64,000 nucleotides of DNA from assembly GCA_010093745.1 (NCBI GenBank), contig MU005957.1:496001-560000 (forward strand), written 5' to 3'. Source of the DNA: Piedraia hortae CBS 480.64. Lineage: Eukaryota. Below are positions 7,048 through 59,303 of this stretch, piece by piece. The translations under genes were made by a program, and so were the position numbers. Within the stretch, counting starts at the first letter, position 1. The number at the start of each line of letters is the position of its first letter. The notes beneath the pieces are model-generated. The model searched no databases and was not told where the DNA came from. It saw nothing but the letters and a program-made list of their open reading frames with translations.

Positions 7048-7599
7048 TCAGGCCAAGGTCTTCAACGACCTCTGGACGACTGCGAAGTTAATATCCCGCA
7101 CATGCTTTCTGAACTCCGCATCGTCATCGTCATCATCGCCCGCAACGTCCTCGACATCATGGCTCTGTTCAGACGCACACAGAGAGCAGACGCACTGCCC
7201 TTGCTTTCCCTCCACGAGCCACTGGAAGTACGGGTAGAACCTCTTCAGGTTACGAAATTCCTTGCCCGAAGGGTAACCCCCCAGAGCATAGTGGCTCTTC
7301 CGGGTTTTACCGTGGCCGTGGGTCTTGGGGTAGCCGGCGTAGCCATCCAGCAGGCGGTCAAGGACGAAGTTCTTGACTGGCCAACTGTAGCCAAGGTCAG
7401 CGGCCCAGAGGAGGCCGATGCCTTTGAGCCACCAGCTGTCGCACGGCTTATCGGTTGCAGGCTTGGGGAAGCTGGCCACTATACATAGTGCATTGTCAGA
7501 GCGGACGGAGACGGACAGGTCAAGATGTTATATCATACCGCCGATGCCGTCCGTGTCGTTGTTGATAGGGAGGGTGACCGGTGCGGTAGCGGCTGTCAT
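7048..7599 (-). CDS. Clr2 N-terminal-like domain mini-gene, copy 1 (most intact; 2 exons, intron 7479-7538)
   Basis: Exon 1 MTAATAPVTLPINNDTDGIG, then a GTATGA...CTGAC...TAG intron. Exon 2 reads WWLKGIG...NFVLDRLLDGY...HYALGGYPSGKEFRNLKRFYPYFQWL...CVCSLC plus an acidic tract. This matches the Clr2 N-terminal pattern L..lP.GY...YL.GhPsG..FrS...F.pH..WL...CxCxxC as I recall it. Comparison with sibling copies suggests a frameshift near 7075. Confidence 0.75.
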
Positions 7600-9049
7600 G
7601 TTTGCGTGCGGTGAGGTTCGAGGAAGATGGAAAATGAAGAAACAAGCGCGACTTGTGGGCCATCATGGAGGAGTAAATGCCTCTGTGGCTGTATTTTCGG
7701 GGGCTTTCACTTGCGTCCGAGGATGGGAAAGATGTGTGCGGAACAAGCCCTGAGGCGCTTCTAGTTTTACAGTTGCGAAAGGGAGCGCGAGATATCTTCT
7801 TTGTGAATGAGCAGTGTGCGCAATCATCCTGACTTGAGTTTTTCCACGACACCACAAACTGGCTCGTCCAGAATATTTTGCTTCGGAGCTTGAAGAAAAT
7901 CTTTCCAGGATGCTAAGCTATATATTTTTATGTCACCAGCGTGCTGATCACTGTTGTGCAAAATAAGAGTGCCTTTGAGAAAAAAAAATTCTTATCATGA
8001 CTCTTAGCATGCTACATTGGTCACACTGAAAGCTAAAGATACCCCAAAAATATTTGTTTTGGGCAAGAACCTCGATGACGAATGAGAGTATGAAAAGCAG
8101 CGGTCGTTTATGTGGCAATGGTGGGCGCAACCATACACTTAGTCCACGGTTGGAAGACAAAAAAGTCAGCAGAGGCCGCAATTGTCTTGCCATGTTGCAT
8201 CTAAATCCTCAATATCCTTTTATCAGAACATCGCCCTGGAGTTACATCCAAGGGTCAGAATGTATGATCCACTTGGTTCGAGGGGAGGGAGCCTGAAATG
8301 ATAGTACACCTCATCGAGCGGGGCATGCACCCGGCTTACAAGATATCTTCCATGCATATGGTCTTTGTTTCCTCATGATTATGGCAAGGCCTTTGCAGCG
8401 AGTGGAGGTGTTTCTGCCCAAAATCCATGGCACGTAATTGTGGCGACAATACACCCGTGTCAAGCTCTGCGCCTGATAACCTGACGGGCAGAAAATTGAG
8501 GAACATCCAAACCCGCGCCCGGACTTCCATATTGGCGAACAAACTTTGCCGATAGGCTCCAGACTTTTGACCCACGAAGATGTTACTGTCGACACTATCT
8601 TGTATGTACACTCATCAGTCCGAAGCCCGCCTAGGCCTCAGGGCCCTTTCCAGCTTGTCGCGTGCTGCGTCCATGTTGCCCACGCTTTACTCCACTGTGT
8701 GCATTCGAACGTTAATTGCGCTTATCTCGGCATTGGTAGCTCTCCCCGGATCCAGGGCTTCACTTCTGTTCCTCTGATCGAGTCGATGCTTGCTGATACC
8801 CTTATGTTGCCCTCGATGCCCTTGGAAAAGGTCAAAACAGAAAATATGACGCCAAGGGCTCTGACAATGCCAAGAGCCTGGATGAATATGGCGACCGCAT
8901 CCCCGTGTAGGACAGTCGGGTTCACCAACGAGCAAGATCCAGCCCACGTAGCTGTTGGTACCCCTCCAGCAGCTCTTCGATGCTCACATTCATGATGTCT
9001 TGGGCTGCGGTGAGCTCAAAAAGCGATGGAAAAGGGTTTCCACTACCTA

Positions 9050-9654
9050 AAAGAGGTCGTGGTATTTTGTTCTCCTTGGGGAGGTACTTGTCTCCCCCCT
9101 GCTCGGGCCAAGTTCGTCCACTGCACCACGGACGGGGGCGAAAACGGTATTCGTTACGTGGTTTTCGAACTCCTCGTCGTCTCTATCTCACCCGCAATCT
9201 CCTCCGCTTCATGGTCGTTCTCTTCATTGCTACAGATTAGTAGTGCGCATAGCGTGCACGTGCATCAACCCTTCATGCCGCCCATCAGCCAGATGAAATG
9301 AGGTAAAACATCTTTTGAGACTTCTAAACTATTTGCGAGACGGATGGTCCCACAGCGCATGATTTTTGCCTTTCCACGGCCATGTGTCTTGACATACGCG
9401 ACGTGGTCGCGAGGAAGACGGTCGAGGACAAAAGTCCAGTACGGCCAGTCTTGGCCCAGCGGCCCAGAGTTGGCCAATATCCTTGAGCCATCGCTCTGGG
9501 CTGGGCTTGCCGGTGGCGGACGGTGAGAAATTGGCATCTGCAATGTAAAGTTAGAACATGCGGGCATAAAATTATTGAAATTCGGAAACTTACTGCCAAT
9601 GCTGTCCGTGGCATTGTAGATGCGGAGGGTGAGTGATGTAGTGGCGTTTACTAT
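9050..9654 (-). pseudogene. Clr2 N-terminal-like copy 2 (decayed)
   Basis: Start codon reads ATA. Same intron position (GTAAGT..CTAAC..CAG). WPYWTFVLDRLPRDH, YALWDHPSRK*FRSLKR and PHFIWLMGGMKG*CTCTLC, with frameshifts and stops. Confidence 0.8.
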
Positions 9655-10631
9655 TCTGGCACAGAGGTGGAGGTTCGCACCATCATGGAGTGCATACCTC
9701 TGCAGTGGCGTCGTTGAAAACTTCCACTTAAACCCCAATGGCGAAATCAGTGTGTCGGGTCATCACACCCGCACAAGTTGTTATACACGTTCTGCGCTCC
9801 TGGAACGCGTGAACGGCCCATCTCTTATCGCAGACTGAATCTCGATGCAGGACGGGAGTAGCGGAAAAGCGTCGTATGTCGAAGGCGAGCGTTCAGGCTC
9901 TGGACGTATTGATGCGGAAGAGAAATGCGTTTGCTCTACCTTGATGTTTTCTTGCCAAATATAAAGGCAGTTTGGATACGGGGTATATAACCGGGTTGAC
10001 GAAATAAGCGGGTTGAAGCAACCACATTGAATGATGGGCATTCTTCCAGAGAAGGGCCTTAGTTTTTATTTTGAGTGGGTTGTGTTTGTCACACTGTCAG
10101 CTGTCGGCACCCCATATATATATGCTTGGTGTGATAACAACCAGGAGGCATGTAAAGAAAAAGTTGTGTTTGTTTATACGGTGTTTGGTGAGTCTAAACA
10201 GAAACTTTGGAAGAAGATAAAAGGGTTCAGAATAGATGTCGCAATCATATTACCCTGCCGCATTCGAACCTCATAAAGTTCATTGATCCTGGCAGACTTG
10301 TCAAGCCCCTAAAAGCTTGCTCTTTAGTTTCCAGACCTGCGCGATGGTAATCCAGACAAAAAAGTGCACAGGCGGTTGAGTTCATAATGTCGGCTTAGGT
10401 ATGTACATGTAGCAAATTGCTCTTGGTTCATAATACCTTGCACGATGCATCGAGCCATTCACCTTTCGATTGACAGGATAAGACTGACATAATGCTGCGC
10501 AGAGTTTGCATTCCCAACAGCAAACGCCAAGGCTCGCACAGCACTAGTGTGAGCCACTTACCAATCCAAATCAATTTCTGCCAAACCTCATTACCACCTG
10601 CGCCCCTAAATCAATCCGTACAACGTCAAAA

Positions 10632-10853
10632 ATGGTCACCCAACAAGTCTCGAACGCTGCATCGCTCGGAAACCAGCCCGTCATGAACACTGGTCTTCAG
10701 ACGAGGAGCATTGAGGTCATATAGAACTTAGCCGCCGCGATACACGAATAGTGCAAGCTCTTACAGAAGGAGTGTGCTATTTACTGCTTGAAATATGTTA
10801 TCATGGACGAGGTTTACGGGTATGCTACCGAGTTAAAGGGGACGAACTGATAG
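10632..10853 (+). pseudogene. Decayed paralog of the 34856-35467 gene (partner of the Clr2-like gene)
   Basis: MVTQQVSNAASLGNQPVMNTGLQTRSIEVI*NLAAAIHE*CKLLQKECAIY aligns with MANQHVSNGASLRNQAAMNTGPQMPHIRAIIHLSAMLDEQYELMQEEQAIF. Two in-frame TAG stops. Confidence 0.75.
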
Positions 10854-12977
10854 TGTGAGTACACTAAGACGTGAATAATTGTATAGTTATGTATACTGCA
10901 TACACGAAATGACGTTGTTCATGGTCATCACGTGACACATCCTTCAACTTACCGTCCCATTCATGCGAGGACCTCGCAACGGTCACGCCAACAGATCAAG
11001 ATCTCTGGGAGACCCGCAGTCACTCGCCTCAGTTCCCATGCCTGTGGAAGATGGTAGGGCGGCGAATGCCTCGTCACGTACGTCGGCATCGGATGTGCCC
11101 AAGGAGACACAAACCCGGCGTGAAACATCTACTGTATGTAGGAAGTCTACTTAAGGTGGTGTGGCTGCGTGGTTGCTTGACACAGCTACGCATACCTGGT
11201 ACTAGTCGTTCGGCAACTGTAGTTTCGCGCCGGCTCACAAACTTCTTGCTTCAAAACTGAATGAGCGTCCTCTTGTTCGACTGATTATATTCCTCATGAA
11301 GGGAAGCAATCAGTTTCGGGCGCTGTAGCTGTTGCACTCTACTCTCATCACCCAATATTCATCGTTGGTCACGGATGATCAACACACTGTTTTTCAGTGG
11401 AATAAAACTTCTATCACCAAGTAGAGCTGGGACAGTGCGATGCGCCACAACGAGAATACAAAGACATGGGCGCACACCGTTGGTAGAATGGGTATACCTT
11501 TGTAAAGGGGCAAGAGGCACACTTCCATATCGCTTAAGCATCAGAATGGGCACTTGAATGAACGCGACTGTGAATGCGATGATATTTCATAACTTCAGGT
11601 GAAAGTTGAAATATTTACCGCGTGCCAAGCCATCTCCACTTCCTTAGTCGATCATGAGTCATGGCTCTAGATTACATTGGCCAAAATCACGCCGCATGAG
11701 GTTTACTAACCTCAGTGGATGGAATGAAAATCTGTCAAATCAAGCAATGCGTCCACGCACACTGAGTCATCGTCTAATTTCTGTCAGTATCCTTCGAGAT
11801 GTTTCGTTAAGGCGATTCAGCCACATATGGACGTCATGAGACTGGGATAGTCCAGCTCCAACGTAAACGGCGCACATATAATCGCGTTACATATGTTCAC
11901 GCTTACAAAACCGAGTACATAGCCACTTCTGGCTTCACATTCTCGCTTTAAAGGCCTTTTCCGTTTGCAGACAATGGCGTCTTCCAACCGCTGCCCGGAG
12001 AACGAGATCTCCAGTCGACATGATAAGCCGAAGCTTCCAAACATTGTCATTTCCATTACACCGTCTGCTACGCAACGTCCACAATAACCATGTCAAAGTC
12101 GACCCCTCCAAATACCAACTCCACAAGCATATTCTCTAGATCGTCCTTATATTCCTCCCCACAGCAGCGGCAAGTCAAGTCCCACAATCCCCACATAAAC
12201 CCAACCACGACATGATGCATAAAAGCAACGCATATGCATGACGCCGCGTGCAACCATGCACAGTCACATGCGTGAGGCCCACAGTATGTATAAGCTCTAC
12301 TGGAGAACTCCTCAGTATGCATGAGCTCCACAGTGGGGAAAGAAATTTACAGTGGAGCTCGCGCATAGAGTGGGGAAGGGACACATACTTTCGTACCATT
12401 CCTGTTTGCCATTCACGGTTCGCTGTAGGTTCATTAGATATGTTCAAAAGATTCACATCCACATGCACCATCCCGGATGGATTATACCAGGTCCATGGAC
12501 CCTCTCGACAGGGTAAACCCCGCGAAGACCCAACCAGCGTGACAAATCTCTCTTAACGTCCAAAAGCAACGTGATCCCCACACCTCCGGGTCTCTGCTCA
12601 GCGGAATTACATCCAGCAGATGGCAAGCGGGCCCCATCGCATAAAATAACACATCCTGCCGTACTTCCATCCACAACACCAATGCACACGCAGTGTCACA
12701 CTACTCAAATCCCATGAAACAACAGAAGAGAAAATAGAGGCCATCAAGACCACATCGAAAAACTACGTTAAAACGTTAACCCGTAAGCGTTATACGAAAA
12801 ACTTTTTTTTTAAAAAAAAGGATTTTGCTTTAAAAAGAAAAAATTCAGCCTCTCGAGGCCTTTTGCAGCCGGCTTTTTTTTTTTTTTTTTTATTCGAAAC
12901 ACCGCCATAGAAAAGAAAAAAGAAGCATAAGGCCTGCTAAACCCCCCACATGACAAGCCAGAATTTTCCTCGGCGCA

Positions 12978-14381
12978 TTAGGTGCTGTCGCCAACGAGCG
13001 AGACGACAGGGTTGAAGTTTTGATAAGCGCAGTCACTGCTAATAGCATGGGAGCTGTTGCCAAAGTGGATGGTCTGGCCATTTCGGATAATGGAAACCTG
13101 AGGGGTTACACCGCCGCCGAGTGATGAAGGGAAGGGGACCATGTTCATAACGGGACCCATTCCGTCGGCGTGGAAGTTCCAGTATTGGTTGCTGCCAACA
13201 GACATTGACACGGTGGAAGGTTCCTTGACCAGGGCCCAGGCAAAGACAGCATCCTGCGGATACTGAGTGTTGCGGATCTGCTGGGACGAGCCACCAATGC
13301 AGACGGCAGACTTGGGGTGCACGCGGTGCCAGAAAATGACCTGGTCGTTGAAAATCGGCGGCGGAGAGCCGGTTTTGAGCCAGGTGAGGTAGTACTTGGT
13401 CATGATGCGCCACGGGGAGTGGTCCTGTCCCCAGACATAGGCGCCCATCTCACCCAACTGAATGTAGTCCTTCTTCGACGTGTCGTATTGATCGGGCAGA
13501 TCGCGTAGGTAGTGGGACTCGCAAAAGTCGTTCCAGGTAAGGATCTCAATCAAATCGGGCTGGAATGCATTGTTTCCGACAAGTGATTGAAAGCGAGTGG
13601 GGTAGAGGGTATCGCTGTAGGCCACCCATGAATCGAGCGGATTACCGTTGTTGAGATCCTTGTACTGCCAGGGAGACACGGCCATGATATAGGGCCCAGA
13701 TCGATGGTTGCTCTGAATAGCATTCTTGAATGCCTGGTCAGGCGTGGTGGAAATATTCTGGCCCGTGTTCAACGGCCAAGCCTGCCAGTTAAGATAGCCA
13801 TCAATAGACTTGTAATCCGACATGAGCTTGCTGGCGGAGCCGGTCGGATCATCCTGGGCAGCCAATGAGTACTTGGTGAGGGCGGGCGCAAGCGTGATGT
13901 ACATGTTAGAATAGGCCATGTTGCGCTTCAGGCCAGCGAAGAAGTCATCGCCGTACTGGTCGACCTGATCGCCGCCATAGGTAGAGACAAGAATGTTGTT
14001 GTTCCACTTGTAAGCAGCCTTGCTGCTGGCCGACTTGGTGAGAACGTCCTGCATGTATGTCTGATTCCAGTAGATGTCACATTCCGAGTACGACATGTCA
14101 AAGGAATGCATTAGGGAGAAGCCAACTTGTTCCGCGGCTTCAAAGGCGTCGTCAATGCGGTCCGCCGTCCATGCGAGACCCCATTGGCAGTTGGGGGGAA
14201 TCCAATTGAGGGCGAAGCCATCTATGCCGATGCTCTTGGCGTCGTTCATATCCTGTTTCCACTGGTTGACATCGTAGGCGTAGGCATTCTGCACCATGAA
14301 GTGCGCGAACACATCGGTAGCTACGGCTACCTGAGCCATGGCCACGGCCAAGACGGCCGCAGCGGAAGAGATTACGCGCAT
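12978..14381 (-). CDS. Secreted GH71 alpha-1,3-glucanase (mutanase-like)
   Basis: Signal peptide MRVISS..., then VFAHFMV, GIDGFALN, SFDM, IEILTWNDFCESHY and FWHRVHPK. No CBM24 tail is visible. Confidence 0.92.
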   Translation of the reverse strand: MRVISSAAAVLAVAMAQVAVATDVFAHFMVQNAYAYDVNQWKQDMNDAKSIGIDGFALNWIPPNCQWGLAWTADRIDDAFEAAEQVGFSLMHSFDMSYSECDIYWNQTYMQDVLTKSASSKAAYKWNNNILVSTYGGDQVDQYGDDFFAGLKRNMAYSNMYITLAPALTKYSLAAQDDPTGSASKLMSDYKSIDGYLNWQAWPLNTGQNISTTPDQAFKNAIQSNHRSGPYIMAVSPWQYKDLNNGNPLDSWVAYSDTLYPTRFQSLVGNNAFQPDLIEILTWNDFCESHYLRDLPDQYDTSKKDYIQLGEMGAYVWGQDHSPWRIMTKYYLTWLKTGSPPPIFNDQVIFWHRVHPKSAVCIGGSSQQIRNTQYPQDAVFAWALVKEPSTVSMSVGSNQYWNFHADGMGPVMNMVPFPSSLGGGVTPQVSIIRNGQTIHFGNSSHAISSDCAYQNFNPVVSLVGDST

Positions 14382-15226
14382 CTTTGTCAAGATAGCGCGG
14401 CGGAGATTGGGTATTATTGGAAGCGAGTGCGTCCGTAAGTTTAACGAATGGAAGGGCACGTGTACCAAGAAGGAGCGACTGTGGGTAATGAACGAATGGG
14501 CAACCAGGCCTGCCTCACGGAGGGTGTGTGTGGTGGTGTGGGTGCAAAAGGAAGGGGAGTGCGAGCGGGAATTACTTGAATCAGGAACCAACCCCCAGCG
14601 CGGGGATCATTTCGGCCTCTACCCGCGCCACGGAAGCCCCGGTTACTCACATCTTGTGCCGGGAAATTAGCAGTCAGGGGTGATGTTGTCGCGGCTCGTT
14701 CCGTGACACGCGCGCATGAAACCGGGACAACCTCGGAAACGTTGTCTGGGGACCAATAGCGTGCCCGTGCCTGGGAGCTCTCAGCGTTTGACACGTGTGA
14801 TCACCGTTGATCGACGTTAAATATCTTCTGTAAAACGCAATGCCAACAACATCTCCTCCATAACGGCCAGCGTCATGACGGATTCCAACATTTGGAGCCC
14901 TTTCCACAGTCTTGTTCGCTCTACTAAAAATCGACAGGGGTTCCCTGCACGGCTGCAGCCTTAAATTGGCTGCAGACGCCCGCGGCGCGAACGTTGGTTT
15001 CCGCAACTACGCGTATCATAGGCAGATACGCGAAGTTGCCGGTACACAACACTGCGTATTCTGCAAAACAACCTCGACCTCGTGAATGAGCCAAGTCAAT
15101 TAGAGTAGCGCGAGCCCTGATGACCGACTTCTCTCTTGCCCCAGCCCACCTTGCCTTGCATCCTTGAGGCGCCTTTTTGGCGCGCGCGTAGCTGCGCCGA
15201 GCGTCCAGAACGCTCGAAGCCAGCCA

Positions 15227-16616
15227 CTAAAATCTATTATCTGCTGTGAAAAGCAACGCTGCTAGATAGTGACGGGCCCATAGCGCTAAAAGACCTATAG
15301 CTGCTTGTGCAACCAGAATCTCTGTGGCTAATCGATCCTCCCGCATCGGTCCTCTCCATACGAGCCAAAGGTTCAGAAGCGTGAGGTTGCTGATCATAAT
15401 TACCTGACCCTGTTCGTTCACCGTCACGCAAAGCAACCTCAGCCTCGACAGCCACTTCATCAACTTAGCAACAGCCCAGCGACCTTCTAGATGCGCCATC
15501 GAGGGCTCAAGCAGATTGCTGCGTGGGTTGAACCGAGGCGTTCGATGACGCGGACACGGCACCAACCCAAATAGTTGGGGTGCAGAGTATATGAAATTAA
15601 ATATTTGTGGCATCAACAAAAGAAGCAGTGTTTTGCTGAAGTGGCCCAAAATGCCGACCACGGCAAGCACCATGCCGGCAAAATAGCAGTAAGTGTCACC
15701 GACAAAGACGCGAGCTGGGTACCAATTGGGCCGCAACAGCGCCAACGAGCCGCCTATCAATGGCAGTAACAACGACAGGCTGAAACGATGCGATTCTGCT
15801 GCCGGGTGTGGCTGTGTCACAGTCGGTAGCAAATACAACATGTCGTTGAGGCATATCAAGAGGGCCACGACGATGCACTGGCCGACTTCGATGCCATTTA
15901 TTCCTGCCAAGATGTTGATGCAGTTTGGGCAGAATATGGCCACGGCTGCCATGTAGATGTAGTAGAAGCCGCCGAGATCAATGAGATCGCCCAGAAGGCC
16001 GCGCAGCGGCAGTGGCACCACTACGCGGGTAACTCCAAAATCAACATAGTACAGAGCTAATGTTGGAAGAACTGCAAATGCCGGAATGAAAAACTTGTGT
16101 CGCCATCGCATATCGAATGAGTCGTCCAGGATGCCGAGAATTGTCATTGACGCCAGCGTGCCGTAAGCGAAGCCGTACGACGCCAGTTTCTCCAGTGGGA
16201 ACCGATACAAAAAGCGGCCCGTTTCAACATCATACGTCGACGCGCCCTCTCTCATGTGGTTTTTGAACGCAAAGGGCAGGAAGAAGATTAGTGCAAGGAG
16301 ATATACTAGGGCTACCACGAGACCCATAGTCTCTGGTCTGCGAGGCGTTAGATATCGGTTTAAATTAAGAACTTGACCAAACGTACATCACCACCGCATT
16401 CTTCTTGGCGAGATCCCGTCCTTTGTAGCCCCTGTTGAGAAACACCGGCCCTGTCCATCGGATCAACGCAGATGTAAATGCGAACACGAGTCCGCTAATG
16501 GCCAGAGATGCGTATAGCGGTTCCTCGTCATGATGCCAAGCCTGATATAAAATGGCCAGGGATATAACAGAGAGTCCAGTTAGGTAATACGCCTCCGAGC
16601 GCGACAAGGTCTGCAT
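15227..16616 (-). CDS. ALG7: UDP-GlcNAc:dolichyl-phosphate GlcNAc-1-P transferase (intron 16338-16386)
   Basis: GRDLAK..IPETMG after splicing, GILDD, NCINILAGINGIE, PARVFVGDTYCYFAG, PCPRHRTPR. Confidence 0.95.
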
Positions 16617-16752
16617 TGTAACCGTTGCATTTTAGCAGAAACATGACCAGCTGGCAGCCGGTGATAGACAGGGATGGAGTCGGGGTGTGGGGAACGGGAT
16701 GGGACGGGCCGCACCTTTTCGCGACGTCAAGTTCACAAGGCCGCCAGGAACC

Positions 16753-17844
16753 ATGGAACAGGAATTCCACCGCTTCTTCCATGGCCACAACGACCTGGTA
16801 CTGGCAGTGAGTTATAACGCCTATGGGACACGCTTGGCAACAGCGTCGTCAGATCATCGTGTCCGAGTGTGGGACCGCAATGACCAGACGGGAAAATGGG
16901 ATATCGCTGAAGCCTGGACAGCTCACGATGCCGAAGTGATGGATATCAAGTGGGCAGGGCCGTATGTGGGAGAAATCATTGGCACAGTAGGCGAAGACGG
17001 ACTCGTGCGACTATGGCAAGAGCTTCCGGACAAATCCGGTCGTCGCTTTCGCAAGATATATGAACACGTGTCTCCCACTGACATGCCGTACATGTCACTT
17101 GACTTCAAAAATGTAGGCTGCAGTGTTTTCTTAGCACTCTTCACAGCGGATGGTCATCTCTCGGTCTTGGAACCCGAGGATGGAGAGAAGCTCACTTCGT
17201 GGAGGTCCATGTGGGCTGAACACATATCTAAGGCACCTTTAGGGGGCGAGGAGGCTGGATTCAGACTATGTTGGCATGCCGAAAAGCTCCCTGCATGGCC
17301 AGCTGTACTGGCCGGTCTGGATAGGAAGAGCATGGGGGTTGCTGTTACGGCCGGGGACACTGTGAAGGTCTTTCGCACCGACGCAGAACGTAAGTGGTAT
17401 CTCGCAGCGACGCTGGAAGGCGCAAAGGGTTTAGTACGTGATGTAAGCTGGGCGAACGGTAGTATGCGTGGGTTTGATCTCATAGCCACAGCCAGCAAGG
17501 ATGGCTGTGTTCGAATATACGAGCTGCACACACCGGGGGAAGGCACCCTGTGCACTGTGACATCTACCGTCCAGTCGACAGCTATGAAACCTCGCTCTGG
17601 AATCGGGACTGGCTTGGCAGGAGGTGCCCGTGGACGCAGAGATGATAACGCTGACAGTCCGGGAGCCATAAAGCAAGAGGCTGAGCTCGTGGCCGAGTGG
17701 GAGACGCATAATGGAGCCCCGTGGAGAGTGACTTGGTCTCCCGCCGGAGACGTTTTGGTCTCTGGAGGTGACGACGGCGTTGTCAGGATGTGGAAAAAGG
17801 CCAACGGCAAGTGGCTGGCTGCGGCCGAAGTGGGTGATTGTTAG
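16753..17844 (+). CDS. SEH1: WD40 nucleoporin Seh1
   Basis: GHNDLVLAVSYNAYGTRLATASSDHRVRVWD, VRDVSWANGSMRGFDLIATASKDG, LVSGGDDGVVRMWK. Confidence 0.88.
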   Translation: MEQEFHRFFHGHNDLVLAVSYNAYGTRLATASSDHRVRVWDRNDQTGKWDIAEAWTAHDAEVMDIKWAGPYVGEIIGTVGEDGLVRLWQELPDKSGRRFRKIYEHVSPTDMPYMSLDFKNVGCSVFLALFTADGHLSVLEPEDGEKLTSWRSMWAEHISKAPLGGEEAGFRLCWHAEKLPAWPAVLAGLDRKSMGVAVTAGDTVKVFRTDAERKWYLAATLEGAKGLVRDVSWANGSMRGFDLIATASKDGCVRIYELHTPGEGTLCTVTSTVQSTAMKPRSGIGTGLAGGARGRRDDNADSPGAIKQEAELVAEWETHNGAPWRVTWSPAGDVLVSGGDDGVVRMWKKANGKWLAAAEVGDC

Positions 17845-17869
17845 CTCTACACACACCTCATTAATACAA

Positions 17870-18415
17870 CTACCAGCCCTGTCCCCTCAGCTTCTGCACC
17901 ATCTGCACTGTCGACCTGAAATTTTCCTTGAACCTGGCCCTCCATCGTTCGCTCTTTAGTCTCTTCCTTTTCAGACCCGGCCGCTCATGAAACTTTTGGG
18001 TCCTTGCTTCCTTCCTGACCTTGTTCTGCGCACATTTGACTTCTAGCGCCCTAAAAGATCGGGCCAAGTCCATAGACTTGTCGGGTCTGACATACACCGT
18101 CCTTCCAACGCTGGCATTGAGCTTCATGGGCAAAGGCTTCTCGATCAGGGCCGGCAACGAGGGTTTCGAGGTTTCTCCACCTGCACTGAACGAGTTGAGC
18201 ATACGTTCCACTTGGTCTATTCCCCCGAGTCTGTTTGACCCCAGAGTGCTTTGACTGGATCCCGAGCTAATTGACGATTGGGCAATGGAGTCGATCAGCT
18301 CATCGACACCTGATCGCGCATTATCCTGCGGTCGCCGTGCGCCACATGTAAATGACCGCTGTACTGGCTTCGTAAAGAGCAGCAGCAGCGTTCGCCTGCA
18401 CGCTGTGGCAGCCAT
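17870..18415 (-). CDS. MRP21: Mitochondrial ribosomal protein bS21m
   Basis: Mitochondrial-presequence-like N-terminus. C-terminal S21 motif NKVRKEARTQKFHERPGLKRKRLKSERWRARFK. Confidence 0.88.
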   Translation of the reverse strand: MAATACRRTLLLLFTKPVQRSFTCGARRPQDNARSGVDELIDSIAQSSISSGSSQSTLGSNRLGGIDQVERMLNSFSAGGETSKPSLPALIEKPLPMKLNASVGRTVYVRPDKSMDLARSFRALEVKCAQNKVRKEARTQKFHERPGLKRKRLKSERWRARFKENFRSTVQMVQKLRGQGW

Positions 18416-18580
18416 TATACCGATTGAGAGTTTGCAGTGGCAGTGGCAGCGGGCAGCGGCAGCGACTGGAGGTGAGGTTGACGTGGCCAAAAGTGGTGAC
18501 ATGCTCCTTGACTTGTGGCCACCAGAATAATTTTGCTGGTTGACGCGAAGAAAACCTCCGACGCTACCTCCGACGCTACC

Positions 18581-22745: not shown

Positions 22746-22949
22746 TTTCTCGAGAGGGGGGATAGCGGGTGGGATGGGGAGTGTATGAGTAGTTGTGTTC
22801 GATTCCACCGGGGGATTAGATGGGAAGTGGGTAGAGATGGTTGTTTATGCTATTCACTTTGTGGTGTTTTATCTCTGTGTCAGGGTCGTTACTTGATTTT
22901 TCGGTTGTTGATGTGGATGATTCGCTGCCGGGATAGGTGGATATCGTTG

Positions 22950-24098: not shown

Positions 24099-24604
24099 GT
24101 CTTGTAAGTCCCCCCTCCCTAGTATAACTGATAAGGCATATCAGCACCCGAAAAGACGATGGATGTGCTCGTGACTGTGTCCAAGGAGCTGCGCGGAATG
24201 ATGTCGTCCAGTGTAGTCCAGTCCGCCGTTAAGTTTCCGCTTCCAGCCAGCAGCGTGAGCGATTTATAGGGCTGCCCGCCTTGGTTGGGCTGAATGTGGA
24301 ACAGTTTTGTCCGCCAGGAGGTGTGGTGGTTCTCCAAGTGGGGTGCCAAGCAATTCATCCCTTGACGGTGACAGCTCAAATGCCGCCTTACTTTATCTGG
24401 CCAAGCGCCATCAACTGAACGATGGGCAACAATTTCTGTAATCGAGCTGTGTAAGAGGCCAGCCTAGATCGATTCCTCAATGGTAACCCACTCCCGATTT
24501 ATGATAAACACCTCAACGTGTTTCCATAGAAATTCAGGTTCTTAATCTCAACACCTTCAACCGCAACAAAATATCATACATAGTCATCTTACAACAAACA
24601 GTCC

Positions 24605-34855: not shown

Positions 34856-35467
34856 CTAGCGTCTAGCAGAGGCTGGTGTCTGATTGGACAGAGTCGAAGT
34901 CGGCGTAGGTGACGGAGAATTCTCTCCCACATCGTCATCTTCAGGTAGACGAACTGAGAGAAGAAACCTCAGGTCTTCCCGACGACGCCTCTCATAGTCT
35001 TCATACCACCACGGTAGCTTTGACGACGATCTCGGATCGTTAGCGTTGTCGTTACGAGGACGTAACTGAGCTGGATTGCTGGCGTTGCCGTTACGACTTA
35101 GCTGGGCGGGATTATTTGCGTTGCTGTTACGACAGCTTAGCTGAGTTGAATTGCTGGCGTTGCCGTTGAGAGGACCCAGCTGGATCGGATTGCTGGTGTT
35201 GACGTTACGAGGACCTAGCTGAGCTGGATTACTAGCGTTGCCGCGATGAAGACTTAGCTGAGTTGGATTGCTAGCCTGCCGGCTATGCTGGCCGAACCGA
35301 GCACATTCCACGCGAAAAATGGCCTGCTCCTCCTGCATCAACTCGTACTGTTCGTCTAACATGGCGGATAAGTGTATGATGGCTCTGATGTGCGGCATCT
35401 GGGGTCCGGTATTCATCGCGGCTTGGTTTCTGAGCGATGCACCATTCGAGACATGTTGATTGGCCAT
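34856..35467 (-). CDS. Hypothetical protein with ~13-aa NASNPAQL repeats; divergent partner of a Clr2-like gene
   Basis: Open 203-aa frame from MANQHVS. A paralogous pseudogene at 10632 supports a coding origin. Confidence 0.65.
   Translation of the reverse strand: MANQHVSNGASLRNQAAMNTGPQMPHIRAIIHLSAMLDEQYELMQEEQAIFRVECARFGQHSRQASNPTQLSLHRGNASNPAQLGPRNVNTSNPIQLGPLNGNASNSTQLSCRNSNANNPAQLSRNGNASNPAQLRPRNDNANDPRSSSKLPWWYEDYERRRREDLRFLLSVRLPEDDDVGENSPSPTPTSTLSNQTPASARR
35040..35285 (-). repeat. ~39-bp coding minisatellite (6-7 units)
   Basis: QASNPTQLSLHRG / NASNPAQLGPRNV / NTSNPIQLGPLNG / NASNSTQLSCRNS / NANNPAQLSRNG / NASNPAQLRPRND. Confidence 0.9.
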
Positions 35468-36665
35468 TGTTGAGTGGTTGAACAGATTTTGTTCCAGACT
35501 GCAATTGGTTAGGTTTGGCGGCAATCGAGTTCGACTGTTCGGGACCCCAAATTAGTGCGTCTTGGCGTTTGCTATTGCTCAGCTAGTGAGAATGCAAACT
35601 TCTCGGCAGCTTTCCGCGACCTTCTGCCCGTCAGTCAAATGTGAAAAGGACGGTTGGCTAAAAGCTTGATGCACTGTGCAATGGTGTTTTTTCTACAACG
35701 GTTTGCTGCATGCACATACTCAGGCTTCTGGATCACTGTTGAAAATCCTCTAAGACACAGGTGCCTGTGCACGTTTTAGTCTGGACTGTCAACGCGCTGC
35801 TAGTCAGACAAGCGGGCAAGATCAGGACGCAAGTGAGTAGTTCTTGGAGGCTTGACAAGATTGTCAAGTAATTTTAATGGAGTTTTGAATGGTACACGGG
35901 AAGACGATTGCCATCTTCGTTTGTCGATCCTTTCATCTCCCTACCATCAACGCAGAGGTTATAACAGTGACCAACAAACACCGCGTAAACAAACACAGCT
36001 TCTTCTTTACACTCCTCTTGGTTTTCATCATCCCAAACATGAATATATGAGCAGACAGCTGGGGTGGTAAACATAACTTACCCAAGTTAAAACGAAGACA
36101 TATCTGCCAGAAACTTGTCAATAATGCGTATGAGCAGCCAGCAGTTGCTTGAACCCGTTTGGTTCACCAGCTCCGTTATATACTGGAATTGCCTTTACAT
36201 CTGGCAAAAACACCCCGACAGATGCGAAATACGCCATTGGACCTGATCCAAGTCGAAATTTGTACGAAGGCGACCGAATATGAAAGTCAATTTGAAGACC
36301 TTTTCGCACATAGTACTTTAGCAAGAAAACGTCGAATTCTCCCGCGTTACCTCCCGTGACCGGGGCTGATCAAGCAGAGTATGCAAATACCCTTCCAGAG
36401 GCTGCATTCTCGCCTTTCATCAAGCTGTGCTTCCTCGCTACTTGCAGTTTGCCTCAAGGTTACAGCCTGTGATGAGAGGTGAGCCGCTCACGCGTTTCTG
36501 GAACGGCCAGAACGCGTATAACAATTTTTGTGCAGAAGTGATACCCCGGCACACAGATTCCGCAGTCGGAGTTTAAGTGGAAGCCCTCGAAGACGCCACT
36601 GCACAGGCATTTACCATCCATGATGGCCCATTACAGCTCTCCTCAACCTCCACCTCTGCACCAGC

Positions 36666-36912
36666 ATGGCTAACGCCACTACCATGCCTGGCCTCCGCAT
36701 CGACAACGCGACAGACGTCATCGGCAGTATGTTCCCGAATTCCAACAATTTCCTACCGTCCGCCACCGGTGGTCCCTACCGCAAGTGGTGGCTAAAGGGG
36801 ATTGGAAAGCTCTGGGCCGCCGACCTGGGGCACAATTTGCCATACTGAACTTTTGCCCTCAACCGCCTTTATCCGTCTCGCAAAGAATTCGGAAGTTTGA
36901 AGAGGTTCTACA
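36666..36912 (+). pseudogene. Clr2 N-terminal-like copy 3 (internally deleted)
   Basis: MANATTMPGLRIDNATDVIG...KWWLKGIGKLWAADLGHNLPY*, then LNRL joined directly to YPSRKEFGSLKRFY. Confidence 0.8.
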
Positions 36913-36920
36913 CATTCACT

Positions 36921-37540
36921 ATGGCCCACCACAAGACGCGCCTTGTTCTTCTGCTTCTGTTTTCTTTGTATTTTTAACTCTCCTCAACCTCAACTTTCGG
37001 CTAAAGTGGTAAATGCTACTTCAACTTTCACGCTACCAATTAGCAATGCCACGGATGGCATTGGTGGTACGTTTCCAATCCCGACCTACCTAAATTAGCC
37101 CATTCTAACAATCCGTTATTGTCGCGAACCTCCCCACGACTGCCACCGCCAAGCCCTGGGCGGCCGAGCTGGACCAAAGCTGGCCTTACAAAAACTTCAC
37201 CCTTGACAGCCTCGCCGAAGGCTATGTTGCCTTCGTAAAAATCCACGGCTGCAGCAAGGCACGCAAGAGCCATTATGCTTTGTGGGGCCACCCGTCAGGC
37301 AAGCAAATCTGGAGCCTGAAGAGGTTCCTACCCCACTTTTTGTGGTCGATGGGTGACCAAAAAAGGCCAGTGCGCTTGCACTTTGTGCTTGGGAAGAGGA
37401 GATGGACGGAAAGGAGCCCGGCGAAATACCCAACGACAACGGCGCCGTGAGTAGCGAGTGATGTGGTTGGTGGACTGGGCCTGAGCATCAAGAAGACGAG
37501 GAACTTTTCGTGGAGGCTGAAGTATCTCTACCTTTTTCAA
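36921..37540 (+). pseudogene. Clr2 N-terminal-like copy 4 (tandem with copy 3)
   Basis: ISNATDGIG plus an intron remnant; WAAELDQSWPYKNFTLDSLAEGYVAFVKIHGCSKARKSHYALWGHPSGKQIWSLKRF; PHFLWSMG; GQCACTLC; DVVGGLGLSIK. Frameshifted. Confidence 0.8.
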
Positions 37541-38067: not shown

Positions 38068-38617
38068 CTACGATAGATTGTGATATATATTCCCTACCAT
38101 GTTAGGACCACGCTGTTTATCGTCGTCGCCGTTGCCTTCGTTGCCGTGATCGACCTCCAGCTCTTCGTCATCCCCTTCGTCGTCTTGGGGCAGCAGCGCA
38201 CACAGGGTGCAATTGCACCGACAGTCCATACCTTCAATAAGCTACAAAAATTGGGGATAAAATCTCTTTGGACTCCGGAACTCCTTCTGCGACGGATGTC
38301 CCCGGAGAGCATAATGGTTTTTGTGCACTCTGTCTTGGCCATGAACCTTAACGTAGGTAGCGTAGCCGCGGAGCAGGCGGTCGAGGACAAAAGTCCAGTA
38401 AGGCCAATCTTGGCCGAAGTCGGCGGCCCAGAGCTTCCCAATTCCCTTCAACCACCATTTACGGCAGGGCTTGCCGATGGTGGATGGAGAAAATTGGCCT
38501 CTGCGATGTAAGGTTAGAACCTGCGTGTATGGAATCGTTGGGGTATGGGACCATACTTCCGATGCCCTGGGCGGAGTTTTCGATGCGCAGGTTGAGTTTT
38601 GTCGTTGCGTTTTTCAT
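38068..38617 (-). pseudogene. Clr2 N-terminal-like copy 5 (convergent with copy 4)
   Basis: MKNATTKLNLRIENSAQGIG, the same intron, then a 1-nt frameshift. KWWLKGIGKLWAADFGQDWPYWTFVLDRLLRGY...HYALRGHPSQKEFRSPKRFYPQFL*LIEGMDCRCNCTLC. Confidence 0.82.
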
Positions 38618-39421
38618 TCTGCTGTGCGAAGGTGGAGGGTGCGAAGATTTAAAATCAACTGAAAGGAGAAGCCGAAGAATGAGGCGCGACTTGCCGTGGG
38701 CTATTGTGGTAGAGTGAATGCGTTTGCATTGTAGTCGTCGAGGACTTTCACTTACATTGATGGGGCGATAACTGGGAAAGGTGTGGGGAACGGTCTGATT
38801 TTCTACCTGCATGAGGTGCACGGGAGGGTCCGAACGTTTTGTGGGAAAGTGTACTAAGCGAGATTTTTCTTGAGTTGAGATTTGCCTTCAGTCGCGTTTA
38901 CGATATACAGAATTGCTTGTTCGCAGGATATATTCATACTTACATTTGGTGTGTTGCAATTTCGTTGGTTCGCAATGATTGTTAAAAAGTTGCTATCGTA
39001 TACCTAAAGATCCCCACAGAAGAATCGTGTGCGACGCCAACGTGCAACAAGACTCACTAACTAGGACTTAATCCAACCAAGGAGATCGTGGACTCGAGGG
39101 CATAGAATTCGTTGTCGGAATAAGGGACGGAGCTTAATCCCGTCTCTCCGCCGCAGCGAAAGGTGAATCAGTTGTGCGCATGATTTATGTCCGTTAAACA
39201 GGAGAGTAAAGGGTACACCTGTGTGCCAAACCTGCCCCGCATTCGCCCACGAGCAAAATCATTCAACTATAGATGCATCGTCTTCATAAATTTCCACTTC
39301 TGCAAACCTAAGCCGTAGTAATCTATCCGGACTGCAATAACAAACGCCAAGCATCTCCCCTTACTCCGGGCCGATTCGTCTGACACCATGCCATGATTCA
39401 AGCAACATTACTTCATTAAAA

Positions 39422-49388: not shown

Positions 49389-49473
49389 ATTCCTAGCTTA
49401 CATGAGGGAAAAGAAAAAAAAATATATAAGGCGAGTAAGCACACTCATCGCCTAATTAGGAAGGAGCCGAGGG

Positions 49474-50547: not shown

Positions 50548-50895
50548 GATCCGCGAGGCGGAGCGTTTGGGGGATGCGGTGCGGTGGAGATGGGGAAAAT
50601 ATTTTTATCCACGACATTTAGGAGCCAGAAATATGTTTGAGATCACGCTTGTCCCGTTTGGGAACGGCGACTTCGGTCGCGTCAACGCGTGCAGCTGGAG
50701 AATTTCTGCGCCAACTGCGCCGGGTGAAACGTCTTTGCTCGAGACAAAGGTCCTAAAGGAGGAGGAGCTGCTCTCTGTGACCCTTGTTGTCCCGTCACCG
50801 TCACATCACCGCCCCAAGCTCACCGTCCTTTGCGCTCCTCGTCCAAGAACAACACCTTACAAGACCATTGCACAAGCTCGCAACAACCGCAGAAA

Positions 50896-54945: not shown

Positions 54946-55434
54946 GTTTGTAATCTTCGAGATGAAAGGGTTGCTGAGTAGATAGATTCTATTTTTTTTT
55001 TCTTTATTTTTTTTTTATTTTTCATTTCCACGTGTAGTGTGTCTAGGCGGCTTGGGAGCTTGCTAACCATGGATTAACTTTGTGCGCCGTATGACATGCC
55101 TTGACGGAGAATTTCTTCTTCATACGGAAGATACTGTCTTCTCTATATAAAAAAAAAAAGAATTCTGTAACACTAGCACAGTCCCGCCAATGCGAAATTT
55201 CTACTGCGCGGACATGCGGTAAGCGTTCAGTCACTCTCAAACGCCTCTCTTCCACCCTTCTTCGAGCAAAGATTCGAGTCGGTTCGCAAAAGACTATCTG
55301 AACGACGTTGGTGGACTGTGGTTTCATGTACGGAACGAGATCACACCGTGGCATAGCTGAGCTCTGATTCGAAAATTCGCGACTGTATAAAAATCGTATT
55401 GAAAAGCTTAATGCCCACATTAGACTCAATAACT

Positions 55435-55635
55435 AAAACAGGTCGTGATATTCCATCCTTCGCGAAAACTCCTCGTCTCCTTGCTGAGGCCAAGCTCGTC
55501 AACTGCGTCATCCTTTCGTCTTCATCAATGCCGCTGCCCGTGTCATCCTCAGGCTACTGCCCGCCCTCTTGATCATTACAGAACCGGGGCGCACAGAATG
55601 CAAGCACACTGACACTGTTTCCCGGCAAGGGAAGA
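55435..55635 (-). pseudogene. Clr2-like family 3' fragment (copy 8)
   Basis: GKQCQCACILCAP, an acidic tract, DAVDELGLSKETRSF and MEYHDLF, matching the tails of the other copies. Confidence 0.65.
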
Positions 55636-56059
55636 ACCGACACCCCGATACCTCCATCTCTGGCTCGTCGAGAGCGAGCGAGGTATTGTATGAAAAGAAG
55701 CACTAGAAGTAGGATATTCGACATTATGACTGCTTCGTTGGACTGAGAGGCACGACAGAGGTTCTTACTTACTTGTCGAGCGATGCGGGGTTAGGAATGT
55801 TGTTTTGACGAGGGCAGGAAGATGAGCGTGGCTGCCCCTTCGCCATAACTGGTAAATTCTGATTTGCTGGCGTGAGCTTGTTCCGTGCAGTTGGGCATTT
55901 GGGCAGTGGCTACAGAGCATGTGGCGGGAGCTCGTCAGCTGCAAGAATTGACATGAGGTGGGACGTCTTTGTCTAGACTCTCGATGCGGAACTTTGGTCA
56001 TGTTCCAGGGCGAGTCTATCCAGGTCGCGCGTTACGGCGAAAGTGAGCCCGTCAACTGC

Positions 56060-56534
56060 ACCGCATTCTTCAGAGCACAAGTGACGTGCCTCTTCGTCAT
56101 CACTAAAGCTGGGACGCACAGAGTGCAGATGCACTTGCCCTATGTCCCGGCCCGCAGCCACAGGAGGTCATGGTCAGCCTCTTCAACTTTTAAGGCGACT
56201 TGCGCGGAGAGTGGTGACACAGTACATGGTGGGTCTTACAAGCTTTTTTATGGCCTCGGAGCTTGGAGCAAGCGGCAGGGGATGCCTTTTGCGAAACGCG
56301 GCCACGCAGCAAGTGGCGGCTCCAGTACGCTCGGCCAGTACCCTGAATCTTGGGGTAGCTGTTACCAGGGCGGCTCAGAACGAAGTACTTGTACGGCCAG
56401 TCGTGGTCGAAGTCCGTGGAGCAGAGTTGGCCCATTCCCTTCTGCCATCGCTAGGCGTCTGGGTTTCCGATCGCGGATTGGCTATTAGTGGCGTCGCTAT
56501 ATGAAAGTGCCAATGTTGCGGAGGATGCTGTCAT
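56060..56534 (-). pseudogene. Clr2 N-terminal-like copy 6 (intron region deleted; internally duplicated or chimeric)
   Basis: MTASSATLALSYSDATN...RWQKGMGQLCSTDFDHDWPYKYFVLSR...HLLRGRVSQK, then a second GHKKACKTHHVL...LLWL...GKCICTLC. Confidence 0.7.
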
Positions 56535-58699
56535 GCTGGTGCGCTGAGGTTGAGGCTGGGAGGCCTTGAAAGCAGACGCGACTTGTAGTGGGCCATCATG
56601 GTGGAGTGAACGCATCTGAAGTGGCATGGTCGACATTGTGGAGGCCATGGTAAAGCCCAGGTGGCACATGACGCGATCAAGCAGCGCGACGAAGGTGAAA
56701 AGGAGTCCACATTCTCCATCATGGACTTGTTGTTTGAGACGGGGTGATGGCTTGAAGTTGCCAGTCCGCCAGCGGGATCTTGTCATGCAGCAATATCAAC
56801 GCTCTCATGTATGGGGCGAGGGCTGATACTTTCTTGGGATGTACGATCTACTTCATCGTACGACCTTGTAGAAATGGCAACAGGCTGAAGCTGTAAAACT
56901 CGCCGAAGGCTGCGGGTAGGACATGACAGTGGCGGAGAGGCTGTCTGGCAAGCCAGCCGAGGTGACTGAGGTCGTTCCGAACACTGAGAGCTTGTCACTG
57001 AGCACTGCCGTTGCTGGTCGTGACAGATCGATTCGATCGTACAGCGACTGATCCAGACATGTTAAAAAGTTGTGTGGTTGGAAGAGGCTATCACGAGCAA
57101 GGCCTCTCGTCCCCTGGCTGTTCCATGGATGTGGTTTGCCAGGTGCGCACGTACCGGGTACCGCATACGTGTGCTATACCGACCAGGCGCTCCTGTGTAG
57201 GATCCCGTGGGTATATAGCAGGCCCTCCGGACCTCGCTGGCTTGCATATAAGACAATATCTTGCTCGAGCCTGGGCCCGTGCCACACCCCATGTGCTTCC
57301 CCCGCAGAGACATTGAGTCTCCGACCCCTGGACGGGGATGCCAAAGCTCGATGGCTACATCCAAAATTTGAAGCCGCATCATCAATAGCTCCAAGCATCG
57401 AATGAAGTCGCACTTGTATATTGCGGATCCCTCTTCAAAGCGGATCACCTGTTCTCCCAGGGCTATTTTGTTGACCCTTGGGTATAGCGGGATACTCGGT
57501 AAAGACCCAAGCAAATATGAACCCGTGTCCCCTCACGGATTACCCATCCAAGGTTATATATGGGTTCAAGCATAACAGCGCTACGCTGGAAATTTCGACG
57601 AATGGCATGTATATACCCTCCGCGAGTGATGCGCACACATCCATGTGTGCGGAGGCGACATCCCCAATGGCGTTGTCGCTGATGATGTTGTGGTAAAGGA
57701 GAAACTCAAATCAAGGTGTGTTTGGGTGTGCGGCCATCTTGGCGTGGGTAAAGCAATGCACGGACCACGAACAGCGACTAGCGGGAGTTTACGCCTTGCT
57801 GCCTTACCCCGAACGGGTGGCAACTGTGTATAAAGTTGTTTGGGATGGAAGCATACTTTCGACCCCGAGCACTAGATTTCGCTGAACTCGAAGTGCGGTG
57901 CGAAAGATGTTGCCACGTTTATGGTGATGAGGAGTGGTGGTGTGTAAGAGAGAGTATTCGACGTGGCCTTGCTTTGAGTGTCGGTAGGAGGTGATCGCAC
58001 GGAATCCACGTCGGTCCGTGCATGGTTACCTTTCCTGAAAGGATAATCGTGTGCATGAGTCAGCTGGTGCAATGTGTTGTGACAATGCATTGTTGAGACC
58101 AGTTTCGAGTGCAAATGAGGCTTGTCAATGTAGGCGAGCCATTTGTTAACCTTTCGGACTTCTCTGGCATTCCGATCTGGCTGACTAAATCGGGAACCTT
58201 TCTCATATATTATCAATCGGCTTGTTTAGCTAAGCGTAGTTTGATTTGATTACACCAGTGGCAGACACGGGACTCCTTGTGCATTGTATGGTTTTACACT
58301 CACATGTAAAAGTCTCTAATTTTACTTTCATTGACTTGCATCCCTATTGAGTTATTGGAAAGGTACTATTGTCTTGATGATACTCTCGCTGAGGTCACAA
58401 GTCCTCTTGCTGCGTTAAGTTAGGGGTAAAAGGAAGTCTCTAACCATCGCATAAGAGTGTTCCCAATTCCAAAAGACAAATGGGGAAAGAGATATTTAAC
58501 TTAAAATCAGAGGATGGACGTTTGCACAGGACACTGTGGGCATATATGAAAAGCCTTAAAATCGCGAGATGCAGAGGGAATTTGTAAACTGGATGGACAA
58601 CAAGAGTGAACTGACTAATGGAAGGAGAGAAAGGCTAAGATATAACCACTAATGAGGACCTGCCCAGCGTGTTGGAGCTCCAACTACCGAAGCGCAATC

Positions 58700-59303
58700 T
58701 CTTGGTGCGGCGGGAAAACCCTTTATCTCGTTTTGGGTGAGACCGAGCTCATCCACCACATCGCGAACAGAAGCGTAAATTGCCCCGTTGATATGGTCCT
58801 TCGAAGTCGTCCCCATCGTTGTCATCGCTGCTGCTATCATCCACAGGCTCTTGGCCGCTTCCTTCATCATCACTAGAATTGTGGGCACACAGCATGCAAG
58901 CATACTGACACCTGCTTTCCGCCCATCAACCACAAGAAATGGGGGTAGAATGTCTCACTTGTAGAATTGTTTTTGGGAAGGGTGGCCCCGCAGCAAACGG
59001 AGAACCTTGCAAGCCTTCCTGTGGCCTCGAATTTTAGAGCGGGCGGCCTAGCCGTACGGAAGGCGGTTAAGGATGAAGTGTTTGTGTGGCCAGCCGTAAT
59101 CAAGGTCGGCGGCCCAGGGTTGGCCGATACCCTTGAGCCATCGACCGGCGTCTGGCTTTCCGACCGCGGAAGGGGTTAAGTTGGGGACTGTAGTGAAAAG
59201 TTAGGATGAGCCAATACAGGTGGGTTGGGGCTCAAGATATACCGGTAATGCCATCAGTGGTGTTTGCAATGTGAAGTTTAAGCGTTGCAGATGGTCCTGT
59301 CAT
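58700..59303 (-). pseudogene. Clr2 N-terminal-like copy 7
   Basis: MTGPSATLKLHIANTTDGIT, the same intron (GTATAT..CTAAC..CAG), RWLKGIGQPWAADLDYGWPHKHFILNRLPYG*, LRGHPSQKQF, FYPHFLWLMGGKQ, VRDVVDELGLTQNE. Confidence 0.8.

Follow-up and report, generated by a model that had tools for sequence, protein, structure and literature searches.

Why should one small region of a fungal genome hold eight short sequences resembling the beginning of a silencing factor, and are they working genes? The question is raised by a 64-kb stretch of contig MU005957.1 of Piedraia hortae CBS 480.64, a hair-colonising fungus; we refer to this stretch, the whole of the DNA analysed, as the window. Within 52 kb of it, the original prediction had described a dispersed, expanded family of mini-genes for the N-terminal domain of Clr2, a subunit of the SHREC silencing complex of Schizosaccharomyces pombe, and had proposed birth-and-death expansion by DNA-level duplication, with a decoy or anti-silencing module or an unrecognised mobile unit as possible identities. 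Our analysis points to a probable answer: the eight loci, here c1 to c8, are the remnant of an old cluster of paralogues, specific to the Piedraia lineage and duplicated at the DNA level, which is now decaying in a reduced genome.

All eight loci proved to be real. Using the exon-2 translation of c1 as a tblastn query, we recovered c5 (38499-38197, E 1.2e-35, 58% identity), c4 (37115-37345, E 6.6e-24), c8 (59188-58913, E 2.2e-16), c3 (36693-36917, E 1.4e-14), c2 (9519-9244, E 7e-13), c7 (56447-56286, E 4.7e-6) and, weakly, c6 (55623-55588, E 0.099). The last was secured by a DNA match to c8, in which 55624-55532 aligns with 58921-58826 (76% over 96 nt, E 1.2e-11). A family hidden Markov model (HMM) run over all six-frame open reading frames (ORFs) of the window found no ninth copy, the next best hit having an E of 0.34. 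The outer limits given for the family are exact, as 7048 is the last base of the c1 stop codon and 59303 is the c8 ATG. The copies do occupy several loci on both strands, but 'dispersed' overstates their spread, since they are bunched in three intergenic islands without Pfam-recognisable genes (A, ~5.9-12.9 kb; B, 32-39.4 kb; C, 55-60.7 kb). Their full extents are as follows.

c1: 6992..7685, minus strand, the only copy with an open frame, carrying the gene model, the Pfam match and the fold
c2: 9047..9702, minus strand, pseudogene
c3: 36602..36925, plus strand, truncated pseudogene
c4: 36899..37540, plus strand, pseudogene in tandem with c3
c5: 38068..38726, minus strand, least damaged pseudogene, Pfam 26.1 bits
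c6: 55433..55630, minus strand, 3' fragment only
c7: 55948..56618, minus strand, heavily decayed pseudogene
c8: 58684..59450, minus strand, pseudogene, with its ATG at 59303

The shared features listed in the original prediction were also recovered. Three-frame translations show xDGIG or a close variant in six copies, WLKGIG.LWAAD in c1, c2, c3, c5 and c8 (c7 has a degraded form and c4 has lost it by deletion), and CxCxLC in c1, c2, c4, c5, c6 and c7, the first Cys being lost in c8. A phase-1 intron is shared at the same position by c1, c2, c4, c5 and c8, that is, by five of seven copies; it is partly deleted in c3 and absent from c7. Because the intron has been retained in place, the duplication took place at the DNA level, as had been proposed.

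Pairwise blastn delimits a common unit of ~0.7 kb, which in c1 extends from 7685 to 6992. It begins with a 5' element of ~45 nt containing an upstream ATG and continues through a variable spacer, a 61-nt exon 1, the intron (60 nt in c1) and exon 2 to the stop, so that its limits coincide with the gene's own 5' element and stop codon. In the 3' alignment a TAG stop stands at the same aligned place in five of the seven copies; in c2, c6 and c8 the sequence before the TAG codes for a tail of the form '..VDELGLSK....PRRTEYHDLF'. The original protein, as part of the explanation we favour, was probably a stand-alone product of ~180 amino acids (aa) that combined the N-terminal and MBD-like (methyl-CpG-binding domain-like) part of Clr2 with CxCxLC, an acidic stretch and a short conserved tail. 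The approximate positions of the 5' elements are given in the following line.

5' elements: 7641-7685, 9660-9702, 36602-36645, 36899-36945, 38680-38726, 56575-56618, 59405-59450

The element lies ~60-110 nt upstream of each copy's ATG and is conserved at least as well as the coding part. Its upstream ATG(ATG) opens a short ORF of the type 'MMAH.KSRL.L...', an in-frame 3-nt indel and conservative residue substitutions are among the differences between copies, and its core motif occurs only at the copies, apart from one likely chance match at 51303. These sequence features suggest that the element may be a conserved upstream ORF or a control element.

The relationship to Clr2 held when the proteins were compared with Pfam and with known structures. 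The Clr2_transil profile (PF16761), with a gathering cut-off of 27 bits, matches c1 at 39.1 and c4 at 33.8 bits; c5, cut by its own stop, reaches 26.1 bits, and the remaining copies are too broken to be scored in one frame. Clr2_transil is the only Pfam family that c1 matches. A phmmer search against the Protein Data Bank sequences returned S. pombe Clr2 (5ikj_A) as the sole match (E 7.4e-4, residues 56-126 on 140-214). An AlphaFold2 model of c1 built from 56 aligned sequences, with a mean predicted local distance difference test score of 79.3, also has 5ikj_A as its best Foldseek match (E 4e-5, probability 1.00), and VIA superposes model residues 7-126 on residues 1-205 of that chain with a Z of 10.4 and a root-mean-square deviation (rmsd) of 3.0 A over 113 residues. 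The motifs 'GHPSG..FRS...F..H..WL' and 'C.C.LC' of S. pombe Clr2 (5IKJ chain A) align with c1. The two differ in that the S. pombe chain has 548 residues, whereas c1 stops at 163 aa with no C-terminal Clr2 domain (PF10383), for which none of the 101 island ORFs of at least 75 aa gave a match; moreover, the Piedraia unit is multi-copy and mostly pseudogenised, and c1 is without the conserved His residues.

The core of the model, three strands plus a helix at about residues 58-110, can also be aligned to methyl-CpG-binding domains (MBDs) such as those of MeCP2, MBD2/3/4 and AtMBD5/6. Foldseek gives probabilities of up to 0.92 and an rmsd of 1.9-2.8 A over 44-47 residues, weak matches with E of 0.06-1, and the VIA Z values are low (2.0-3.3), with MBDs or Clr2 accounting for 24 of the 26 rows listed. 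The MBD profile PF01429 gave no match to c1 at E up to 1, and the CxCxLC extension of c1 is not part of MBDs. These structural matches agree with the available portions of two papers that call Clr2 MBD-like (PMC8667873, PMC6499331). Judged by sequence and model, the mini-gene is equivalent to the N-terminal and predicted MBD-like part of Clr2, lacking the C-terminal Clr2 domain.

What the copies do not form is a set of eight genes: seven are pseudogenes or fragments, and every copy in the window, c1 included, is damaged relative to the ancestral frame. The start codon of c2 has become ATA, and the copy has lost 5 nt at 9457 and 7 nt at 9368, gained 1 nt at 9309 and acquired the stops TAG 9331-9329 and TGA 9267-9265, with the intron and C-terminal tail still recognisable. 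In c3 the 3' part of the intron is deleted, a TGA stands at 36846-36848 and an internal deletion takes out the MBD-like core, after which the copy breaks off at the start of the c4 5' element. Copy c4 has GTG for ATG, no AG at the intron acceptor, a +1 insertion in an A run (37357) and a 36-nt in-frame deletion at 37143 that takes out WLKGIG. In c5 a TAG (38244-38242) replaces the Trp codon of F.WL, a 1-nt deletion at 38491 just past the acceptor means that a shifted acceptor is needed to keep the frame, and the 5' element has ATA where its upstream ATG should stand. The fragment c6 keeps CxCxLC, the acidic stretch, the tail and the TAG stop, together with several stops and frame changes. Copy c7 is without the intron and contains TAG 56453-56451, TAA 56192-56190, TAG 56142-56140, a 78-nt insertion at 56354 and a -1 deletion at 56177, while c8 carries TAG 59050-59048, lacks 2 nt at 58957, has 1 nt too many at 58910 and shows a Tyr in place of the first Cys of CxCxLC.

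Repeat-induced point mutation (RIP) was considered as the cause of these lesions and rejected, because the dinucleotide indices match those of genic DNA: TpA/ApT is 0.68-0.76 in the islands and 0.62-0.68 in genic DNA, and (CpA+TpG)/(ApC+GpT) is 1.20-1.26 and 1.19-1.28, respectively. RIP is usually called at a TpA/ApT above ~0.89 and a second index below ~1.03. Only c4 reaches a TpA/ApT of 1.0, with a second index of 1.24.

The present state of c1 requires closer attention. Its coding sequence, 7599-7539 joined to 7478-7048 on the minus strand across a GT..AG intron at 7538-7479, reproduces the database protein, and its exon-2 translation is 99% identical over the full length to a 163-aa hypothetical protein of P. 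hortae CBS 480.64, which UniRef names 'Cryptic loci regulator 2 N-terminal domain-containing protein'. A -1 frameshift, caused by a 1-nt deletion after 7075, leads to the stop at 7050-7048 instead of the ancestral family TAG at 6994-6992; the tail is still encoded out of frame, and nine other residues and a premature stop take its place. Thirteen residues show no or almost no variation across the 55 outside homologues, H104, C116, C118 and C121 (P0001 numbering) among them. Of these 13, c1 keeps nine and shows the changes P64L, H89Y, S97N and H104Y at positions where the homologues have Pro64 (54/55), His89 (53/55), Ser97 (52/55) and His104 (55/55). We infer that His104 and the three invariant Cys may form a metal site. 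For comparison, 11 of the 13 are kept in c2, c4 and c5, 10 in c8, six in c7 and one in c3. Of the 37 scanned proteins with a Clr2_transil domain, c1 also matches the profile least well, at 39.1 bits where the others score 39.8-101. Most likely, c1 is either the last, already impaired member of the family or a pseudogene whose frame happens to be open.

How the family arose and what it did before this decay was approached through its phylogeny and its codon-position record. We built a tree by a quick method from 62 rows and 105 columns, comprising seven window copies (in the c1 frame, with X at breaks) and 55 outside sequences; c6, being too short, entered neither the tree nor the dN/dS tables. 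In the tree the seven copies group as a single clade (Shimodaira-Hasegawa-like approximate likelihood ratio test, SH-aLRT, 100) whose stem measures 1.05 changes per site. They reach 58-66% identity to each other at the protein level and are 64-83% identical at the DNA level over the stretches matched by blastn, and outside proteins are at most ~45% identical to any copy, except one at 51% over 35 residues. Over all 21 pairs, the differences at codon positions 1, 2 and 3 are 0.335, 0.327 and 0.539; they are 0.18/0.18/0.54 for c2-c5 and 0.28/0.29/0.58 for c1-c5. Nei-Gojobori pairwise dN/dS, which the original prediction had called for, is ~0.1-0.5 with dS of at least ~1. The third-position excess indicates that the copies diverged as working genes before they decayed. 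On this record the family is evidently old, coding for most of its history and formerly under purifying selection. The birth-and-death history that had been proposed fits a single clade with past purifying selection followed by lesions.

Duplication also involved flanking DNA. About 2 kb of island A (9.2-11.1 kb) recurs colinearly in island B (36.9-34.9 kb, inverted) and includes an orphan gene, here called gene X, which is present in two states.

Gene X: 34859..35467, minus strand, intact 203-aa orphan ORF, divergently upstream of c3
Decayed copy of gene X: 10632..10784, plus strand, 49% identity over 51 aa, two stops, divergently upstream of c2

Gene X contains six to seven 39-nt tandem repeats encoding a 13-aa unit of the type 'NASNPAQL..RN.', matches no Pfam family and is found letter for letter in the ESM Atlas with a low-confidence model. 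The decayed gene X beside c2 indicates that c2 and c3 derive from segmental duplication of a two-gene block. Separately, an inverted stretch is common to islands B and C (33530-34134 and 59875-60187; tblastx 50-55% over short pieces, with stops in all frames), and is probably a further decayed duplicated segment upstream of Clr2-like copies. Like birth-and-death clusters described from reduced genomes, the family comprises tandem and segmental duplicates that were under purifying selection and then acquired independent disabling mutations. It differs from them in that the module is chromatin-reader-like and in that no fully intact member is left in the cluster, which is unusual.

The original prediction described the Piedraia unit as a truncated form of a normally longer protein, but among its outside homologues the short form turned out to be ordinary. 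When 1.84 billion cluster representatives were searched exhaustively, 59 matched at E up to 0.001, of which 39 were scanned with Pfam. Clr2_transil is present in 36 of these; 16 of them also have PF10383 (544-930 aa) and 20 do not, and 17 of those 20 are no longer than 251 aa, the same make-up as that of c1 (163 aa, PF16761 only). Some short forms retain the motif that comes next in the long form, and for these a long gene has probably been modelled incompletely; others finish, as c1 does, in an acidic tail. In the ESM Atlas, several clusters of 50-95 members bear the name 'Cryptic loci regulator 2 N-terminal domain-containing protein' at lengths of 134-209 aa, mostly from Ascomycota, and named short forms are also found in Mucoromycota (Lichtheimia, Phascolomyces). 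These proteins share with the window copies the SDG motif, the helix, the MBD-like core, CxCxLC and often an acidic tail (e.g. P0002, 167 aa). They are, however, mostly at most 45% identical to the window copies, which form their own clade on a long stem, and Piedraia differs from them in having a local cluster of eight in which every copy is lesioned.

Sequences P0044-P0059 entered the alignment and tree without a Pfam scan. P0010, P0022 and P0026, three of the 59 matches, were dropped from both as probably spurious and driven by repeats: they are HA-domain (helicase-associated, PF03457) repeat proteins with 7-11 repeats, which had matched query residues 28-78 repeatedly at E 2e-7 to 1e-5. 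A profile of 23 short forms, run through an insensitive word-index search, returned 8 proteins with no second P. hortae protein among them. The equally insensitive 'near' search of that index returned the c1 protein itself only, and the 'longer' search found none among 117 candidates. In the literature searched, where Clr2_transil, PF16761 and IPR031915 are absent, there was no paper on the short forms and no function for any of them.

The window is rich in housekeeping genes, and its long ORFs, ordinary for a filamentous ascomycete, encode a multicopper oxidase, a class II aldolase, a GH71 protein, a WD40 protein, mitochondrial ribosomal proteins, an adaptin, EMC4, a Nup155-type nucleoporin, aminopeptidase P and Kre9, and no tRNA or Rfam matches were found across the window. 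A diverged tandem array occupies 22949-24106, after a gene with a RanBP1 domain; Tandem Repeats Finder reports periods of 44 and 91 nt over 23296-23554 with 74-75% matches, and self-blastn stretches the array to ~1.1 kb at 67-76% identity. The region at 20-24 kb has a very high AT skew (0.26-0.31).

One presumed-RNA sequencing run was compared with positions 1-20000. Its contigs behave like RNA, with depths from 0 to 24,274, one joint with CT..AC ends that skips 49 nt, and one loose poly-T end. They give no cover at 6671-8671, which includes c1, and next to none over c2, and are uninformative on expression either way. A contig of 2,739 nt at depth 299 spans 3352-6081, well past the aldolase gene; the ORFs beneath it at 5062-5550 and 5507-5896, both on the plus strand, match no Pfam family, and the region 4300-6081 may be an unannotated or orphan transcript adjoining island A. 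Further along, several of these contigs match only the short stretch 10830-10953 and continue on both sides into unlike sequence (summed depth 159 in the bin 10673-11339). The stretch has no tRNA or Rfam family match, and the pattern suggests a short sequence common to expressed loci elsewhere.

Among the other explanations of the cluster, the one that deserves most discussion takes c1 as functional, a diverged stand-alone Clr2-N/MBD-like protein that might act, for example, as a competitor or 'decoy' at Clr2 target sites without the deacetylase module, the other copies being birth-and-death debris. We regard this as rather unlikely, while granting it a real chance. Its strength lies in the annotated open frame with proper splice sites, in a Pfam score above the cut-off, in a confident model core that matches Clr2, and in a codon-position asymmetry that holds in pairs involving c1. 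The abundance in many fungi of short Clr2-N-only proteins with acidic tails adds that the architecture is probably functional somewhere, and Clr2 itself, according to the available portion of PMC6093649, binds RNA and DNA and targets the histone deacetylase (HDAC) module. These points are countered by what c1 has lost: the invariant His104, together with His89, Pro64 and Ser97, is gone, although the pseudogenes c2, c4 and c5 mostly keep these residues; the conserved family tail has been removed by the frameshift; and no other Clr2_transil protein scanned scores so weakly. A decoy or anti-silencing role as such would be speculation.

Two further explanations concern what the units are part of. 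Spread by an unrecognised mobile element, with the copies as its cargo or as a piece of it, might be expected from several copies on both strands, in intergenic DNA, of a sharply bounded ~0.7-kb unit, but we consider it very improbable. The 101 island ORFs contain no transposase, reverse transcriptase, integrase or helicase domain, and no terminal inverted or long terminal repeats were found round any copy, so that the mobile unit of the original prediction finds no support here; in addition, the copies are no more than 64-83% identical, the unit ends where the gene's 5' element and stop codon end, c2 and c3 share a colinear flank with the neighbouring gene as in segmental duplication, and every copy lies within the same 52 kb. 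Still harder to credit is a reading of the mini-genes as N-terminal exons of full-length canonical Clr2 genes, the later exons having been overlooked. In 16 of the 36 outside homologues the domain is indeed the N-terminus of a 544-930-aa protein with PF10383, but none of the 101 island ORFs matches PF10383, several copies have a conserved stop and short tail after the acidic stretch, and the next copy or gene is in several cases too near, with only 340 nt from the start of c3 to that of c4. Processed retrocopies were rejected because the intron is kept in c1, c2, c4, c5 and c8 and partly in c3, leaving c7 alone without it. An assembly artefact was likewise rejected: differences of 20-40% separate the copies, and where RNA-like contigs cover the assembly they depart from it in no letter or indel.

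We therefore return to the decaying, lineage-specific paralogue cluster as the probable explanation. The sequences show growth of the family by tandem and segmental DNA duplication of the ~0.7-kb unit, sometimes together with the neighbouring gene X, and a long divergence of the copies under purifying selection; loss of function and decay of the family in a reduced genome would have followed. The protein of the functional era probably bound nucleic acid or chromatin through its Clr2-type, predicted MBD-like fold. The decay of the cluster fits its host, which according to the available portion of PMC7082219 has the smallest genome (16.95 Mbp) and the lowest gene count (7,572) among 101 Dothideomycetes.

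Several points weigh against this explanation. The frame of c1 stays open for 163 codons and its splice sites are canonical; the copy is annotated, stands above the Pfam cut-off and has a confident fold over residues 31-120, so it may still be working, perhaps in a changed role. The 5' element contains an upstream ATG and varies by in-frame 3-nt indels, and it shows more conservation than dead DNA would be expected to have. The copy survey covers the 64-kb window, which leaves room for intact paralogues or a canonical Clr2 elsewhere in the genome, and the exhaustive protein search was clustered at 50% identity. Finally, the dN/dS values are rough, dS being saturated and the pseudogene alignments containing indels.

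A bolder possibility, which we think unlikely, is that selection in the lineage once maintained seven or more paralogues of a stand-alone MBD-like reader of the Clr2 type. They would have been small, fast-diversifying binders of chromatin or nucleic acid that modulated or antagonised SHREC-like silencing, each controlled through a conserved upstream ORF, and this repertoire would have collapsed as the genome was reduced, with c1 surviving in a new role. If this were true, the short fungal Clr2-N proteins would make up a novel class of regulators of silencing, and the cluster would record both their gain and their loss.

The cluster alone opens no new question in heterochromatin biology. For annotation, it means that the one gene annotated here as carrying a Clr2 N-terminal domain is probably impaired and is accompanied by seven unannotated pseudogenes. 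For the family, stand-alone Clr2-N (MBD-like) proteins are common in fungal proteomes, and the Piedraia cluster shows that a gene of this kind can expand, stay long under selection and then vanish wholesale in a streamlined genome.

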